From the UHGV virus genome UHGV-0256895: DNA of 18,404 nucleotides; one strand, written 5' to 3'. The translations under genes were made by a program, and so were the position numbers. This document shows positions 4,950-17,921 of this stretch, in pieces. Below the pieces are notes generated by a model. That model saw nothing but the letters and a program-made list of their open reading frames with translations, ran no database searches and was not told the DNA's origin. Each line of letters opens with the position of its first letter. Within the stretch, counting starts at the first letter, position 1. Source of the DNA: a virus.

Positions 4950-5235
4950 GTTGTCCCCTTACGCGCTGACCTGGCTGGCGAAATTCACCAGGTACTGATC
5001 GGTGATGCGCTGGCGCAGCATCAGATTTTCAAGTGGCGGCACTGGCGTGTAGTCATAGTCGATGGTGAGTTTTCCGGCTTTCAGCGTGTCTTTGTCGTTC
5101 ACCGACTCATCCAGCCAGCAATCACCACCAATGAGATAGCCCTGACTGACCAGGCTGCGTATTTTGGCGCGGATACCTTCGATAATGTCGCGGGCCAGCG
5201 ACGGGTTAAGCGGTTTATCCACCGCCCACATGTGT

Positions 5236-5315
5236 GCTTCTGCCATTGTGTCCGTCAGCACCTGCGCCGTGCGGGTGTAGTTTTCGAAGGCAAAAAGCGG
5301 ATCATCGCTCAGACA
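5236..5315. repeat. Left copy of a perfect 80 bp inverted repeat inside FI (native-orientation copy)
   Basis: Plus 5236..5315 is the exact reverse complement of 5518..5597 (checked base by base, 80/80); encodes [27 protein letters not shown] in the minus-strand sheath frame. Confidence 0.9.
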
Positions 5316-5517
5316 TGCACTTGGTCTGCGTGCCAAAATTGATGAGCAGACCGGGTGGCACAAAAGCCTGTCCAACGTGGGCGTGAACGGTGTCACCGGA
5401 ATTTCTGCAGATGTGTTCTGGGATCTGCAGGACCCGGCAACCGATGCAGGTCTGCTGAACCAGAACGACGTCACCACGCTTGTGCGTAAAGACGGTTTCC
5501 GCTTCTGGGGTTCCCGC

Positions 5518-5597
5518 TGTCTGAGCGATGATCCGCTTTTTGCCTTCGAAAACTACACCCGCACGGCGCAGGTGCTGACGGACACAATGGCAGAAGC
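5518..5597. repeat. Right copy of the perfect 80 bp inverted repeat inside FI (inverted copy)
   Basis: Reverse complement of 5236..5315; encodes the same 26 residues on the plus strand, continuous with the inverted segment 5317..5517. Confidence 0.9.
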
Positions 5598-6248
5598 GTG
5601 TCCCAGCCAGTAAAGTCGGGCCAGATCAGCATTCCTTCGCGCTGGCTGAAGTTTTCACGGTAAGTGATCGCCTCCTGTACCGTCTTGCAGCCATACGCTG
5701 ACAGGTAAGCAAACCCACGCAGGCTTTGCGCCACGCTCAGCAACTCAGTCGCAACGGCTTTGTTATCGTGACCTGGCACGCCGAGAATGCGCGGTTTAAC
5801 GCCGAGCTGTGACTGGGCAGATAACAGAGCTTTCATGCCTGTTTTTTTACCTTCAGCAGTCACTGCGCCGATGATATTGGTCGTGGTTTCTTCTTCCGTT
5901 TCACCCTGCGGCACACGCACAACAACGGTCACGGGTTTTGCCTGGTCAGCGATGGCATCCAGCGAACGGGCCAGCGTGCCGGACTCACCCGCTTTACCGC
6001 TGGCAGTCAGCACATCAGTGATCAGCACAGGTTTGTTAAGAGGAAACATTTTTGCATCGGCATCATCGCCCGTGCAGACCATGCCCACGATGGCGGTGCT
6101 CACCGTGGTAATGGATCGGGTGCCTTCGTTGACTTCAACAACGCGCACCCCGTGGTGGTAATCCTGAGCCATAGTGGCGAACCTCCTGATTGGATTAGGC
6201 TTCGCCCTATGTTGAAGTGATTGTGCCTGACAAACAGCTAAGCGCAGT

Positions 6249-6314: not shown

Positions 6315-6887
6315 TCAGGGGGATTCATTACTCTTATTTGCCGGAAATTTTCTATAAATTGTGGAAACACCCACATCAAAAATCAGTGCAATACGCTGTC
6401 TTGATTCTCCGGCCTCGAGTAAACGCCCAATCTGTGCCCACTGTTCGGTGGTCAACTTAGGACGGCGTCCACCTACTCTGCCTTTGGCACGAGCTGCAGC
6501 CAGCCCTGCCCTGGTACGTTCAACTATCAGTTCGCGTTCCATTTCAGCCAGGGCACCCATGACATGAAAAAAGAAACGGCCCATTGGGGTACTGGTATCA
6601 ATACTGTCAGTCAGGCTTCGGAAATTCACACCACGCTGGCGCAACTCCTCTATCAGCGTAACAAGATGCCGCATACTGCGCCCCAACCTGTCCAGCTTCC
6701 AGACAACCAGCGTGTCTCCTGCCGATAGTGTCCTGAGCAGCTTTTTCAGCCCCGGTCTGTCGGACTTAGTGCCACTGATTTTATCCTCAAAAATCCGCTC
6801 ACATCCCGCGCAGTTCAGTGCATTACGTTGCAAATCGGTGTTCTGGTCATTTGTTGACACGCGTACATAGCCAATAAGCATGATCAT
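6315..6887 (-). CDS. Serine DNA invertase of the Gin/Pin/Cin/Hin family
   Basis: 190 aa ORF starting M(IM)LIGYVRVSTNDQNTDLQRNAL..., the characteristic N-terminal catalytic motif of the invertase subfamily of serine recombinases, with a C-terminal HTH-like region; true start may be the third Met (6881). Located beside an invertible tail-fibre segment. Confidence 0.85.
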   Translation of the reverse strand: MIMLIGYVRVSTNDQNTDLQRNALNCAGCERIFEDKISGTKSDRPGLKKLLRTLSAGDTLVVWKLDRLGRSMRHLVTLIEELRQRGVNFRSLTDSIDTSTPMGRFFFHVMGALAEMERELIVERTRAGLAAARAKGRVGGRRPKLTTEQWAQIGRLLEAGESRQRIALIFDVGVSTIYRKFPANKSNESP

Positions 6888-6936
6888 CCCCCTGAATAAA
6901 AACCGGAGATGATGCCAGTTAGCCGTTATCTCTGCA

Positions 6937-6962
6937 TTTTCATAAACGTTGGTTTGGGAGAG
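6937..6962. other. Invertase crossover site 1 (gix/hix-like, 26 bp)
   Basis: TTTTCATAAACG TT GGTTTGGGAGAG: two AAAC/GGTTT half-sites around a central dinucleotide as in hixL/gix; sits between the invertase start and the silent tail-fibre segment; matches site 2 at 19 of 26 positions in inverted orientation. Confidence 0.6.
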
Positions 6963-7298
6963 GGAGCAAAATTAGGCGCAGCGGTGTGTGTGGCCGGCTC
7001 TACAGGCTATATGACTATCCCGGCAATGGTCGCCGGGAAAGAACGGGTGATCATATTGCAGTGGTTTGGTGCTGCTACAACTGATTATGTGACACCAGTA
7101 ACTGCGAATTTCCCTATTGCATTCCCAAATGAGTGCATGATTCCGTTATTTAGTGATGTATCAACTGGGGCAGTTGATTTGAGTTCTACAGCCGCATATA
7201 GCTTAGCGGTGGGCCGATCATACTATACGACGGTAACAAGAACTCAGATTACATGTGCTGGCTACGGTGGCTTTAGAGTTTTCGCGATTGGATGGTGA
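6951..7298 (+). CDS. Silent alternative tail-fibre C-terminal segment (Sv'), no start of its own; would fuse to the constant part of H after inversion
   Basis: Plus frame from the crossover core gives [69 protein letters not shown]...GFRVFAIGW, sharing ILQW, FPIAFP and GGF..FA.G motifs with the expressed H C-terminus. The track ORF 6909..7298 covers it. Confidence 0.6.
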
Positions 7299-7303
7299 TT
7301 AAT

Positions 7304-7723
7304 ATGTTTTATTCTGCAAAAGAAAATGCGTTCTACGCTGATGAGCTAAAAAGTATTTATGAAAATGCAGGTAGCTGGCCTGACGATGCCGTTGAAGTAG
7401 ACTATTCCGTATTCGTTGAGTTTGCCGGAGAATCACCTAACGGAAAATTACGCGCTCCTAATTCTGATGGTTTACCTGAATGGATAGATATTCCCGAACC
7501 AACTGAAGAGGAAATTATTGCGTTGGCAGAAGCCGAAAAATCGCGACTGCGTGCTTCAGCTGACTCTGAAATAGAATGGCGGCAGGACGCCGTTGATGCG
7601 GGGATCGCGACGGAAGAAGAAACTGTTTCATTAGCCGAATGGAAAAAATACCGGGTGCTGCTGATGCGAGTTGATACAGCAGACCCGGACTGGCCTACTC
7701 CTCCGGCGACTCAGGCCAGTTGA
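7304..7723 (+). CDS. Alternative tail fibre assembly protein (Tfa, U'-like), silent orientation
   Basis: [28 protein letters not shown]... parallels the N-terminus of the expressed Tfa ([30 protein letters not shown]...); lies directly after the silent fibre segment. Track ORF starts 4 codons earlier at 7292. Confidence 0.7.
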
Positions 7724-8126
7724 TATCTGGTGCGCTGGATATGTCCACAGATTCCAGCGCATCGAGATAATCCAGCCACTCGTTATACTGGGCCTTCTCG
7801 TCGTCTGTAAGTCGCCCCAGCGCAGCTTTACCCGGCCACTGCTTGCTGTTTATATACTCATTAGCCTGATCGATACGATACTGTTTTTCAGCTTCAGCTG
7901 CTGCGATTTCCTCCTCATGGCTTAAAGGTGGAATGTCTACCCATGCCGGCATTCCATCCTCAGTAGCTCCACGAGTTTTACCCTCTGGTGGCATCCCCGA
8001 ATATTCAGTGAATGTCTCATCTGAGACGGCTATGAGATCGTCAGGCCAGTTTCTACTCGCTTCATAAACATCTCTGAGCTCATCAGGGTAGAAAGCGTTA
8101 TTTAATGCTGAATAAAAATAAGCCAT
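7695..8126 (-). CDS. G: Tail fibre assembly protein (Tfa, gpG / Mu U-like), expressed orientation
   Basis: 143 aa ORF immediately downstream of the tail fibre gene; Tfa-like N-terminus; converges on the alternative Tfa with a 29 bp 3' overlap. Confidence 0.75.
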
Positions 8127-8129
8127 TTA

Positions 8130-9545
8130 TTAATACCCCACAGCAAAATAGTTAAACCCGCCAGCGCCGATGGATGATTCAGCGTTGGTTCCTGTCTGAT
8201 AAGCGCGTAGCTGGAAATTAGTTCTCGTAAAATCCTGGGCGGTTAACGCAAAACCTTGACCTGTACCGCCAACACTCTGGTCTGTTGCAACAACACATAG
8301 CGCCCTGGTTGGAAACGCAATCGGGAATGATACTGTTTCTGGGGATGTTTTCGTTTTGGCTATTGCCCATTGAAGAATTAACCCGCCTGGCAGGTATTGA
8401 TACCCCGAATCGGCTCGCTGATTACCAAATGAAGACATGTCCGGAATCTGTCCGGAACCAGTGCCAACATTTTTTTTTGCCGCATCTCCTAAACCAAGGT
8501 ATGCGAGAAGACCAGCGACATCCTTTCCACTCAAATTAGTCAGCGTATTGTCCAGCGGTTGTTTACCTGCCAGCGCATTAAGCATTGTCGTGGCAAAGTT
8601 CGGATCATTCCCCAACGCCGACGCCAGTTCGTTCAGTGTATCCAGTGCCGCAGGTGCAGAACCTACCATTGCTGCAATCGCCGATTTCACAAAAGCCGTG
8701 GTGGCAATCTGTGTATTGTTGACCGACTGTGCAGCAGTGGGGGCTGTTGGCGTTCCGGTGAGTGCCGGACTCGACAACGGCGCTTTCAGTGCCAGCGCAT
8801 TGTTAATGGTGGTACTGAAATTCGGATCATTGTTAATGGCTGCGGCTATTTCTTTCAGCGTGTCCAGCGTGGCTGGCGCACCATTAATAAGAGCCGTCAG
8901 TGCCGCCTGAACAAACGCGGTGGTCGCAACCTGCGTGGTGTTATTCCCTGCCGCTGGAGTTGGCGCTTTTGGTGTCCCGGTAAACGTCGGACTTTCTTTG
9001 GGTGCATACTGTGAATGCGGGTCCGGTGCGGCAAGATGTTTTGCCATCTGATCATCCACGTACACCTTCAGCTCCAGTACCTTGTCATCCACATACTTGC
9101 GGGTTGCCAGCACTACGGCAGGGTCGATTTTCAGGGTGATATTGTCCGTGCTGCTGGTAATCAGCACCATGCGCACGGTCTGGGTACGCCCGCTGCCTTC
9201 AGCCAGTTGCGGCTTATAGCTTTCCGGGCAGTTGCCCACGGCAATCAATGCCCCGGACTCATCAAACAGGCCCACTTCACGTATCCACCAACCGCCCTCG
9301 TTTTCAGGGATCACCTGTTCAGCAATAATCTGGCTGCTGTTCTGCGGGTCGATATAGAGCATATTCAGCGCAGCCCGGCGTTTCTCATTTACCAATGCTG
9401 TCTGCTTGGCGTCCGGCGTTGGCAATGTTCCGCCGCCATCGCCCACCGCCATATGGGTAATTTTTAGCGGCACACCGAGCGCGGCGGCGCTGGCAAGTTT
9501 CGCCGCGCCAATATCCGTCAGCAGGGTATAAAATTTTGTGCTCAT
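8130..9545 (-). CDS. H: Tail fibre protein gpH (constant N-terminal part plus currently expressed variable C-terminal segment)
   Basis: 471 aa ORF; N-terminus MSTKFYTLLTDIGAAKLASAAALGVPLKITHMAVGDGGG... is typical of P2-type fibres; two tandem repeats of about 72 aa; crossover site embedded about 116 codons from the stop. Confidence 0.85.
   Translation of the reverse strand: MSTKFYTLLTDIGAAKLASAAALGVPLKITHMAVGDGGGTLPTPDAKQTALVNEKRRAALNMLYIDPQNSSQIIAEQVIPENEGGWWIREVGLFDESGALIAVGNCPESYKPQLAEGSGRTQTVRMVLITSSTDNITLKIDPAVVLATRKYVDDKVLELKVYVDDQMAKHLAAPDPHSQYAPKESPTFTGTPKAPTPAAGNNTTQVATTAFVQAALTALINGAPATLDTLKEIAAAINNDPNFSTTINNALALKAPLSSPALTGTPTAPTAAQSVNNTQIATTAFVKSAIAAMVGSAPAALDTLNELASALGNDPNFATTMLNALAGKQPLDNTLTNLSGKDVAGLLAYLGLGDAAKKNVGTGSGQIPDMSSFGNQRADSGYQYLPGGLILQWAIAKTKTSPETVSFPIAFPTRALCVVATDQSVGGTGQGFALTAQDFTRTNFQLRAYQTGTNAESSIGAGGFNYFAVGY
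8484..8509. other. Invertase crossover site 2 (gix/hix-like), inside the tail fibre gene at the constant/variable boundary
   Basis: ATCTCCTAAACC AA GGTATGCGAGAA on the plus strand; inverted relative to site 1; falls on the GLG codons of H (..LAYLGLGDAAKK..), the point where the silent segment (..[12 protein letters not shown]..) would join in frame. Confidence 0.6.
8556..8990 (-). repeat. Tandem duplication of about 72 codons inside the tail fibre gene
   Basis: Protein segments ..NTTQVATTAFVQAALTALINGAPATLDTLKEIAAAINNDPNFSTTINNALALKAP and ..NNTQIATTAFVKSAIAAMVGSAPAALDTLNELASALGNDPNFATTMLNALAGKQP are clearly homologous. Confidence 0.7.
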
Positions 9546-12015: not shown

Positions 12016-12033
12016 TGTGTGGTAAATGACACA
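12016..12033 (-). promoter_or_regulatory. Candidate late-promoter dyad (TGT-N12-ACA) upstream of V
   Basis: TGTGTGGTAAATGACACA, centred about 55 bp upstream of the V start codon, which leaves almost no leader if the P2 geometry holds; overlaps the putative promoter and 5' end of the opposite-strand cargo ORF. Motif alone is weak evidence. Confidence 0.3.
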
Positions 12034-12064
12034 AATACAATTCCAATCAAAGAAAGGTAAAAGA

Positions 12065-12595
12065 ATGAGCCATCCAATTGATTATTACGCTATAGAAGAA
12101 CACGCAAGAATAATTGAGCAATTATGCTGTTCATCTGAATTTTATTTACAGCGTATATATTCCACACAGAAAGTATATGATGGTTCTATAGTAACTGAAT
12201 TTGAAATGGAGGAGTTATCGTACAACGGATGGTTGGAATATACCATTAGCAACAATCTTATTAGCCTTTGTACAAAACTACGAATTCTCCAAGACACTAG
12301 TGAACATGAGTGGAACCCAGATTACTCACCTGAGAAAGAAGCATTTGAAGAACATGAAAATATACTTTTTGTTATAGATGGTCATGTTAAAGATTCTATA
12401 CGCGAATGCTGCAATAAAATTATTCACGCATTAAGTTTTGAGTTAACAAAAAAGACCGGCAAAAATGGAATAAAATATTGGGACGGTTCTATTATTGCTT
12501 CTGGGGTTCAAAACAAAAAAAACTGGAAAATTAAAATAGACCTTTTCCCTTTTTGCCAAAGCATAAAAAGTTATTTAAGTTTATTAAGAGCGTAA
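12065..12595 (+). CDS. Hypothetical protein, AT-rich cargo (moron) ORF in the S-V junction; function unknown
   Basis: Track ORF 12026..12595; the RBS-supported start is ATG 12065 (GAAAGG 7 nt upstream), giving a 176 aa soluble, acidic protein (MSHPIDYYAIEEHARIIEQLCCSSEFYLQRIYSTQKVYDG...). Strongly AT-rich and on the opposite strand to all flanking tail genes; no similarity I recognise. Confidence 0.6.
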   Translation: MSHPIDYYAIEEHARIIEQLCCSSEFYLQRIYSTQKVYDGSIVTEFEMEELSYNGWLEYTISNNLISLCTKLRILQDTSEHEWNPDYSPEKEAFEEHENILFVIDGHVKDSIRECCNKIIHALSFELTKKTGKNGIKYWDGSIIASGVQNKKNWKIKIDLFPFCQSIKSYLSLLRA

Positions 12596-15475: not shown

Positions 15476-16068
15476 TCAGCGGCTATCATTGCGCAGTCTG
15501 CGCTCCAGCTGCTGTTTGTCTTTTTTCACGCCACAGCGGGGATCGAGCTGTAACGCATGGTTGAGATGATTAAGGGCGGAAGCCGGATTACTTTCACTCA
15601 GGACAGCGCCAATCGCTTTATGCAGACGCGCCCGTGACTGGTCCGGCATATCCAGACCGTCTGTCAGCTCCAGCGTCTGCAGCAGCAGATCGACATCAAA
15701 GCCGGTAGTGGCAAGCATTGCGCTCTGCGCTGCGTCTGCCATTTCCTCTGCCAGCACGGTCTGCACGTTGCGGTTACCCAGCGGCATCACCCAGCCATGA
15801 CGCAGGGCATGACGCCCGATCTCCAGCGCTCCGACATAATCTCCGGCATCAATGCGCCACAGCATCACGTACATCAGCACGTCATCCTGTTGAGCGCCTC
15901 CGGCAGCCAGGACACCCTCCGCCCAGGCGGCGTATTTCGGCAGCAGCTCCACCTTGATTTCCGCTTTTTTGACCGTGGACTGAACGCCCTTGAGACGGCG
16001 GCGGTCTTCTGCCAGTTGCAGCAGCATCAGGTCATAGCCCGACGCGTGGCGAACGCTGCGCGCTGCTG
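15476..16068 (-). pseudogene. M: Terminase small (endonuclease) subunit gpM body; first 18 codons are separated from it by the N/M inversion
   Basis: Minus frame ..SAARSVRHASGYDLMLLQLAEDRRRLKGVQSTVKKAEIKVELLPKY.. is gpM-like from 16068 down to the stop at 15476 but has an in-frame stop just upstream of 16069; the native start (MSLSPARQHRLRVQAECQ) lies on the plus strand at 16276..16329. The track ORF starts at the internal Met 16027. Confidence 0.7.
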
Positions 16069-16272
16069 ATCACCCGTCTGGATAACCTGTCCATTTACTG
16101 GCAGGAAGACACCCGCCGCCGTTCGGTTATCGACAACCCGAAACGTGACCGGATTGAAAATTTTGAATCCGTTAACGAAGCCTATGTGGTTGAGGACTAC
16201 CGCTGCGCCGCACTGGTGGAAAACATCCAGATTGGCGACTTCAGCGCCGCCGCAGCAGAAACCGGAGCGTAA
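16069..16272 (+). other. N: Displaced C-terminal 67 codons of capsid gene N, on the opposite strand
   Basis: Plus frame ITRLDNLSIYWQEDTRRRSVIDNPKRDRIENFESVNEAYVVEDYRCAALVENIQIGDFSAAAAETGA* matches the remembered C-terminus of P2 gpN; the frame is open without a start codon and is absent from the track. Confidence 0.7.
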
Positions 16273-17047
16273 ACCATGAGCCTGAGTCCCGCACGGCAGC
16301 ATCGCCTGCGCGTTCAGGCTGAATGTCAGACAGCAGCTCACGACCGCAAATCACCACCAGATCGTCATCGTCCTGGTAGACCACGTCGATAAGCTCATTG
16401 ACCGCATCCATCACCACGGCGTCCAGGTTGGCATATTCGCCACCTTTCCCGACTTTCACCGCACCCGGTGTGGTTTCACCGCCCGTGGTGGTGCTGCCCA
16501 TGACGTGATCCGGTGCATCCTCACGGATTTTCTGCAGCCAGCCTTTGTTCACATCCTGCAGCAGCGGGTTTTCGCTACGGTTGGAGGTTTTCGCACGCTT
16601 CACGCCGTTAAAGCCGATCATGATGCGGTCCAGTGCCTGGCGTTTCACGATGGCGTCACGGATACGCACCTGGAAATCCTGAAACTTCGCCCACAGGTCC
16701 AGCTTCGCGTAGGTCAGCACCGTGTCAAAGTTGGTCTGTTCGCATTTGTATTCCACATCGATCATCAGCGTCGGATCGACAGGTTCACGCTCTTTCGCGG
16801 TGGTGTCAGTGGTTCCGGCAATGGTGCTGCCAACACCCAATCCAAGCAGCTGACCGGACTGCTCAGTCACTGGCGTGACGTTAATCAGCGTCAGGAAAGC
16901 GGCGGACTGCTGGATCTGGTCTTCCAGCGTCTGCTGCACAGACGGCTCTACGGTGAACTTGCTGGACAGTTCCTCAACTGCCACACCGTTCAGACGCGCC
17001 AGTTGCTGCAGGTAAGCGTTAAAAGCAAAACGGGTATTCTTCTTCAT
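16241..17047 (-). pseudogene. N: Major capsid protein gene N, N-terminal 239 codons intact; C-terminus displaced by the inversion
   Basis: Track ORF 268 aa; MKKNTRFAFNAYLQQLARLNGVAVEELSSKFTVEPSV...LVVICGRELL is gpN-like to about 16331; the last 29 codons (SDIQPERAGDAAVRDSGSWFTLRFLLRRR) are antisense of the displaced M start and N end. Confidence 0.8.
16276..16329 (+). other. M: Displaced first 18 codons of terminase small subunit gene M, on the opposite strand
   Basis: ATG 3 nt after the displaced N stop, MSLSPARQHRLRVQAECQ, resembling the gpM N-terminus; joins in frame to the minus-strand M body through the inverted repeat when the segment is re-inverted. Confidence 0.6.
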
Positions 17048-17063: not shown

Positions 17064-17807
17064 TCAGCAATTGGTCAGAGTGTCAGCGGGGGCGTTGCCG
17101 CCTGTTGCACGCTGGCGGTAGTCCTGGCGGCTGTCTTCATGACTCAGCTTATCCACCAGTTCGTTAAAGGCGGTTTGCTGCTCCTGCAGAGCAGTCTCCA
17201 GCTCAGACAGGCGTTCTTCCTGCTCAGACAGGGATTTTTCGGTGCGCGTGCTCAGGTTCTGCTGCTCAGTGGCGACCAGTTCCACGGCCTTATGCACATC
17301 AGAGAACCGGACGTCATCGGACTGCTCTTTTTTGGTAAACAGCGCCGTGACGCGGGCAAACAGGGACGGCTTGTCCTCCTGGATTTCTTCCAGTTCGATC
17401 ACCGTTTCCTCTGCAGCGGTAAAAAGATTGGCAGGATTCTGCTTGCGGTTTGCCAGCGGGTTATGGGCTGCACTGGCGCTGAATGTCAGCATTTCCGTAC
17501 CCAGACTGGCGGGATCATCAGTGGCAGCCAGGCCGACCAGGTAGGCTTTGCCCGTATCAGCAAACTTCGGGCTGACTTCCATAGAGGTGAATAATTTCTG
17601 GCCTTTTTTCACCAGTTCCACCAGGGACTCCGTTGGCTCAACGTCGGCATACAGTGCCATCTTGCCTGCCAGCGGACCTTCCGCGATTTCTTCAGCAAAC
17701 CCTGCGGTTTGTGTGGTTGTCGGTACAAATACCGCGCATTGTTTCACTGCCCCCATCACCGCAACCATAAGGCTCCAGTAAGTTTTTTCTAACGGAGCAC
17801 GGCTCAT
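17064..17807 (-). CDS. O: Capsid scaffold protein gpO (body); native 5' end uncertain
   Basis: Track ORF 17064..18029; from about residue 108 (..GFAEEIAEGPLAGKMALYADVEPTESLVELVKKGQKLFTSMEVSPKFADTGKAYLVGLAATDDPASLGTE...TGGNAPADTLTNC) it is clearly gpO-like. Upstream of about 17710 similarity is lost; the first 74 codons of the track ORF are antisense of terminase P. Confidence 0.7.
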   Translation of the reverse strand: MSRAPLEKTYWSLMVAVMGAVKQCAVFVPTTTQTAGFAEEIAEGPLAGKMALYADVEPTESLVELVKKGQKLFTSMEVSPKFADTGKAYLVGLAATDDPASLGTEMLTFSASAAHNPLANRKQNPANLFTAAEETVIELEEIQEDKPSLFARVTALFTKKEQSDDVRFSDVHKAVELVATEQQNLSTRTEKSLSEQEERLSELETALQEQQTAFNELVDKLSHEDSRQDYRQRATGGNAPADTLTNC

Positions 17808-17853
17808 GACAGTGAAAGCAAAGCGTTTTCGCATCGGGGTGGAAGGTGCCACT
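17806..17853 (+). other. O: gpO N-terminal motif encoded on the opposite strand (possible third inverted fragment)
   Basis: Plus ATG 17806: MTVKAKRFRIGVEGAT matches the gpO N-terminus as I remember it (MAKKVSKFFRIGVEGDT); after codon 16 similarity ends. The 52-codon frame (to 17964) is too short for the track. Confidence 0.45.
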
Positions 17854-17921
17854 AGAAAGTTGCAACCGTTCACAGCTGGAAAAAACGCGACAAGTGGGGT
17901 GACTATGGGCCGCTGGATCAG

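Follow-up and report, generated by a model that had tools for sequence, protein, structure and literature searches.

A homology-free inverted-block replacement private to one sequence of a P2-type prophage sheath gene, probably of technical origin

Introduction

The locus considered here raises the question of how a phage tail sheath gene came to have its middle part on the strand opposite to both of its ends, and whether that arrangement is a property of the phage or of one sequence. The whole stretch of DNA that was analysed, 18,404 nt long and referred to below as the window, was assigned to the late region of a P2-family E. coli prophage of the Elveevirus type, Cartapus-like. Its identity to Escherichia phage Cartapus (Peduoviridae, Elveevirus) is 99.9-100%, and prophages located next to ssrA in many E. 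coli match it equally well. An earlier reading of the letters alone (the sequence-only reading) had drawn attention to the sheath gene, and its claims are taken up below with the data that bear on them.

Results

Gene context

The gene order on the tail side is gpD, gpU, tape measure, gpE/E', tube, and sheath. From the sheath onward it continues with a Gin/Pin-like serine invertase, an invertible tail-fibre cassette, baseplate genes, and lysis genes, and after lysis come head completion, small terminase, capsid, scaffold, and large terminase.

Two side observations were made on the surroundings of these genes. The prophage adjoins ssrA/smpB, a typical tmRNA attachment site lying to the left of the window end, in many E. 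coli genomes and in the twin scaffold described below, while in other strains the same tail module adjoins a giant BapA-like adhesin locus; the same phage thus occupies at least two chromosomal contexts. Between the gpS-like tail-completion gene and the gpV-like baseplate gene lies an accessory ORF of 189 aa on the opposite strand (12026-12595, +), which matched phrog_18838 (function unknown) from end to end with E = 6e-136. No match to a PADLOC defence system was found for this ORF and the twin's copy has no Pfam match on record; it was classed as moron-like cargo.

Anatomy of the sheath lesion

The sheath region consists of the following features.

4959-5315 (-), inside ORF 4959-5477: sheath C-terminal part, codons ~273-390 and stop; exact match to the intact gene
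5236-5315: left arm of the repeat, a copy in native orientation, collinear with the C-terminal part; from comparison with the intact gene
5315/5316: novel junction 1; 0 nt of microhomology
5316-5597 (+): inverted block of 282 bp, sheath codons ~206-299; 100% identical to the reverse complement of Cartapus-locus 6337-6618
5316-5517 (+): spacer of 202 bp, sheath codons 206-272, present once and inverted; from comparison with intact genes
5518-5597: right arm of the repeat, an extra, inverted copy of sheath codons ~273-299; single copy in intact genes
5597/5598: novel junction 2, site of a 39-bp deletion (VLNAEATAYATAR); 1 nt of microhomology
5598-6172 (-): N-terminal part of the gpFI-like sheath, codons 1-192; identical to the intact gene of both Cartapus and the twin scaffold

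The perfect inverted repeat reported by the sequence-only reading was confirmed, its two 80-nt arms (5236-5315 and 5518-5597) being 100% complementary and 202 nt apart. The chance expectation of such an arm pair in 18.4 kb is ~1e-40. No uninterrupted sheath ORF of ~390 aa was found. Instead, the N-terminal part runs into 41 out-of-frame codons to give an ORF of 233 aa at 5471-6172 (-), the C-terminal part lies in an ORF of 172 aa at 4959-5477 (-), and the middle lies on the plus strand as an open frame of 93 codons (5317-5595) that ends in ...TDTMAEA.

The assignment of these pieces was supported by Pfam matches. The N-terminal part matched Gp18_domIII_N and positions 1-99 of the Phage_sheath_1 profile, the plus-strand piece matched Phage_sheath_1 positions 104-167, and the C-terminal part matched Phage_sheath_1C, so that all three fragments are recognizable as sheath-family sequence of the P2 gpFI-like kind (PF22671, PF04984, and PF17482). 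Since the three pieces fall on successive parts of the sheath profiles, the plus-strand segment was deduced to be the middle of the sheath protein. The sequence-only reading had proposed the same for the 93-codon piece, and in the intact homologues this DNA is sheath sequence with 100% identity.

Comparison with the intact sheath gene of Cartapus (1173 bp, 390 aa) defined the rearrangement to the nucleotide. The window corresponds to the Cartapus reference up to 6416 at window position 5315 and again from 6657/6658 onward at 5597/5598, and the inverted block in between is also 100% identical to the reverse complement of twin positions 7148-7429. In effect, 241 bp of the sheath gene have given way to a 282-bp stretch that overlaps them and is present as its reverse complement, which leaves 202 bp inverted, 80 bp duplicated, and 39 bp lost. 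This comparison bore out the earlier description of the order as N-terminal part, an inverted piece (A+B), a second B, and the C-terminal part.

The alignment to intact sheath genes of related phages, proposed earlier as a check, also identified the missing part. The 39 lost bp encode VLNAEATAYATAR, residues 193-205 of 390. The earlier estimate of about 19 missing residues, made against a length of 396 aa for P2 FI, was therefore too high, the actual number being 13 and the intact relative being 390 aa long.

The repeat itself was then accounted for from the same comparison. The 80-mer occurs once in the intact gene, and the reference maps once and in direct orientation. It was concluded that the inverted repeat is a product of the rearrangement and not its cause.

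A flip of the spacer between the arms was simulated and gave open frames of only 243 and 197 codons, in agreement with the earlier claim that no flip restores the frame; the earlier description of 26 duplicated codons also holds. When the flip was combined with removal of one arm, a 377-aa in-frame product was obtained that still lacked 13 residues.

Search for the lesion in relatives

The megablast searches covered 5,426 E. coli genomes and 50,697 phage records. No match covering at least 80% of the sheath query was found in the 1,019 matching E. coli records (1,013 of the 5,426 genomes) or in the 57 phage records. The breakpoints are the same in every listed match to this query, each being split there and the inverted piece aligning as a second placement. 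In all 11 loci that were fetched the four canonical junction 24-mers were present, and the novel junction 24-mers occurred in none of them. The string spanning 5315/5316 was absent from genome_contigs, viral_contigs, and metagenome_contigs, and that spanning 5597/5598 was absent from viral_contigs and genome_contigs.

The protein-level data agreed with these results. Among the loci listed that carry the identical tape-measure protein and reach the sheath gene, every one has an intact 390-aa sheath, while no exact protein on record among 153 billion gene positions matched the chimeric 233-aa product. The lesion is private to the window sequence and is not a property of the phage. A recurrent or lineage-specific variant was accordingly rejected, as no junction string, collinear match, or chimeric protein was found in the collections searched.

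The neighbouring invertase and tail-fibre cassette

The region next to the sheath gene contains the following features.

6315-6887 (-): Gin/Pin-like serine DNA invertase; Pfam Resolvase and HTH_7
~6933-6958: 26-bp crossover site TTTTCATAAACGTTGGTTTGGGAGAG, bounding the tail-fibre cassette
6909-7298 (+): alternative gp53-like fibre C-terminus, between the crossover sites
7292-7723 (+): tail-fibre assembly gene, inside the cassette
7695-8126 (-): tail-fibre assembly gene, opposed to that at 7292-7723
8130-9545 (-): tail-fibre protein of 471 aa, a rare mosaic
~8482-8507: 26-bp crossover site TCTCCTAAACCAAGGTATGCGAGAAG, bounding the tail-fibre cassette

Matches to the Gin/Hin-type core (AAACC-NN-GGTTT-type) with at most one mismatch were found only at 6944-6955 and 8491-8502, and the total count of core matches is what chance would give. 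The invertase works on the tail-fibre cassette, and the sheath lesion is not attributed to it. The orientation of the cassette is the same in the window and in the twin scaffold, and high-identity coverage of it was found in no complete E. coli genome and no phage record.

A twin scaffold and two sister events

The rare tail-fibre protein was used as a fingerprint (window 8133-9545, exact match). In an index of 153 billion genes the exact 471-aa protein is carried by only two contigs on record, an ENA metagenome scaffold from SAMN14445755 and a Logan contig from SRR11413006; no literature on either SRR11413006 or SAMN14445755 was found. The former, ERZ28659622 XUQI22-1_SAMN14445755_METAG-scaffold_333, is an 85.9-kb E. 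coli metagenome scaffold that encodes an intact 390-aa sheath, and it is referred to here as the twin. An exact-match walk in the record's own orientation gave 0 mismatches and 0 indels between twin and window over 18,404 nt, apart from three inverted-block replacements. A single gap reported by BLAST in a long collinear block was an end-extension artefact, as no indel was present in the exact walk. The next-closest relatives differ from the window by ~0.08%.

The sheath lesion is thus one of three replacements of the same style in the window, a point that the sequence-only reading had missed. The two sister events, both from the exact walk against the twin, are as follows.

16060-16323: event 2, in which a 264-bp inverted block replaces 405 bp (19 and 122 bp lost)
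17701-17854: event 3, in which a 154-bp inverted block replaces 443 bp (148 and 141 bp lost)

Event 2 removes the C-terminal ~111 codons of the P2-type, gpN-like major capsid gene together with the first ~22 codons of the gpM-like small terminase gene. What is missing through event 3 is the start of the gpO-like scaffold gene, the divergent O/P intergenic control region, and the first ~35 codons of the gpP-like large terminase gene. Each of the three events destroys an essential late gene, and in each of them segments less than 500 bp apart have been joined in inverted orientation. The microhomology at the junctions is 0 and 0 nt for event 2 and 0 and 1 nt for event 3.

Events 2 and 3 were absent from ~1,200 E. 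coli records, where the order is canonical. A 2,705-nt query across both maps to 3,135 nt in each listed record, the difference being exactly the 430 nt lost.

Discussion

Origin of the lesion

Several origins could be dismissed from the structure of the intact gene. Inversion by homologous recombination between pre-existing repeats is excluded since the unrearranged parent has the 80-mer once and no inverted repeat, and misassembly at a pre-existing repeat fails likewise because the intact gene holds a single copy. An insertion sequence or transposon was rejected as both arms and the interior are all sheath sequence, 100% identical to the intact gene, with no foreign DNA.

The sheath lesion as such has no function, and it is probably a homology-free artefact of sequence production. 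This reading is based on the following data. The microhomology at the six junctions of the three events is 0, 1, 0, 0, 0, and 1 nt, against ~0.67 nt expected for random joining. The combination of 0 substitutions relative to the twin with three structural lesions, where the next relatives are ~0.08% off, is unlike natural divergence, and the presence of three inverted-block replacements of the same style in one window was deemed the strongest argument against a biological origin. Once the other routes are set aside, the process left would be cut-and-paste without homology, and it may have taken place as an assembly or chimera error or through alteration of the record after assembly. From the private occurrence of the lesion, the intact twin, and the blunt junctions, we infer this technical origin.

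The sequence-only reading had suggested either a rearrangement by inverted duplication or that the sequence had been misassembled at a repeat. The evidence falls within that pair, with the artefact favoured, but the phrase "at a repeat" could not be retained, as the intact gene has no repeat.

Certain points weigh against an artefact. We know of no specific assembler or library process whose products would be local inverted replacements, each with two blunt joins, inside a contig, and paths through De Bruijn graphs require that the junction k-mers be present in the reads. In chimeras of the MDA type, moreover, complementarity normally extends over 2 bp or more (PMC1855051).

The best-surviving alternative is that the mutations are real and arose in vivo by very recent homology-independent recombination or double-strand-break misrepair in the decaying prophage of one E. 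coli lineage, which we consider unlikely. Prophage genes are known to decay, the gene is killed with its ORFs cut to 233 and 172 aa, and copies that are 100% identical fit a recent event. The source of the window is in none of the collections searched and may be a separate isolate. Homology-free joints can also arise when gyrase or a topoisomerase mediates illegitimate recombination. This explanation nevertheless demands three independent double-junction inversions with flanking deletions within 18 kb at zero point differences from the twin, with six of six junctions blunt (0-1 nt), and no such event was seen in more than 1,000 related prophages. E. coli is not known to have classical NHEJ, and microhomology is a feature of the end-joining and template-switch routes that are known in it.

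That all three lesions are physically real and represent one burst of illegitimate recombination or break misrepair in the late region of a single prophage was judged very improbable. If true, such a burst would be a small bacterial analogue of chromothripsis or chromoanasynthesis and a route of prophage killing undescribed so far.

Template switching by a polymerase, whether in the cell at a stalled fork (fork stalling and template switching) or during amplification in vitro as an inverted chimera of the phi29/MDA type that was then assembled, was considered less likely still. Its topology does fit, with synthesis running forward, jumping to the nearby opposite strand, running back, and jumping forward again, and it would leave inverted segments and, between sites lying within 500 bp of each other, intervening deletions. 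Products of this kind are the dominant form among MDA chimeras, of which 85% are inverted and in which proximity is favoured (PMC1855051). Of the inverted joins less than 10 kb apart, however, 93.5% show junction complementarity of at least 2 bp (PMC1855051), and this was the case at 0 of the 6 junctions here, the probability of which is roughly 0.065^6. Microhomology of 0-1 nt is at chance level and so argues against template switching. Two switches per event would furthermore be needed in each of three events, all of which would have to win the consensus.

Least credible, to the point of being negligible, is a programmed or recombinase-mediated inversion, whether by the Gin/Pin-like invertase acting on cryptic sites in the sheath gene or with the 80-bp arms serving as a flip-flop switch. 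A functional-looking serine invertase does lie 143 bp upstream of the sheath start and the window does hold a true invertible tail-fibre cassette, but no Gin/Hin-type site was found at any sheath breakpoint (5236, 5315, 5517, or 5597), serine invertases are conservative whereas 80 bp have been gained and 39 bp lost, no intact gene results whichever way the spacer is turned, and the alternative orientation occurs in no relative (1,019 E. coli and 57 phage records; 11 loci). The switch was rejected in particular because the simulated flip and the full repair both failed to restore the gene.

Implications for the use of the sequence

With a technical origin as the preferred reading, the practical value of these results is that of a quality flag, since the window differs by three local scrambles from an otherwise identical public scaffold. 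Because of these scrambles, inferences based on ORFs are untrustworthy in the sheath, capsid/small-terminase, and scaffold/large-terminase regions, and other anomalies at 16060-16323 and 17701-17854 should be read in the same way.

Should the molecule physically exist, the only consequence of event 1 would be a dead sheath gene, and if events 2 and 3 were real as well, the capsid, scaffold, and terminase genes would also be dead and the prophage would be unable to make virions. The 80-bp arms would then permit at most rare RecA-dependent flipping of the 202-bp spacer, which would restore nothing. A real sheath lesion would amount to trivial pseudogenisation, one more dead prophage gene, and it would be the reality of all six junctions that gave the case its interest, as a clustered multi-break rearrangement in a bacterium.

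Comparison with known systems

The invertible segments of the Gin/Cin/Pin/Hin systems (Mu G, P1 C, and e14 P) resemble the sheath lesion in being inverted DNA that is bounded by inverted repeats and lies beside a serine invertase. A genuine segment of the Gin/Pin type is present in the window at ~6946-8496. Unlike these segments, the sheath lesion lacks the 26-bp crossover sites, is non-conservative, leaves the gene non-functional whichever way it is oriented, and is found in no relative.

The inverted chimeras formed in MDA (Lasken & Stockwell 2007, PMC1855051) likewise consist of local inverted segments with intervening deletions at sites a few hundred bp apart. They differ in that 93.5% of their proximal inverted joins show complementarity of at least 2 bp, against 0-1 nt in the window, and in that each of the window events needs two junctions.

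A further comparison is with the sheath of Cartapus (YP_010663996; E. coli prophage copies WP_000046133), whose 1173-bp gene shares 100% DNA identity with all three pieces of the window gene. Its neighbours are also those of the window: one flank holds tube, gpE/E', tape measure, gpU, and gpD, and the opposite flank holds the invertase and tail-fibre cassette. In contrast to the Cartapus gene, the window has codons 206-299 inverted, ~273-299 duplicated, and 193-205 deleted, and holds no intact ORF. The gene that underlies the lesion is an ordinary gpFI-like sheath gene.
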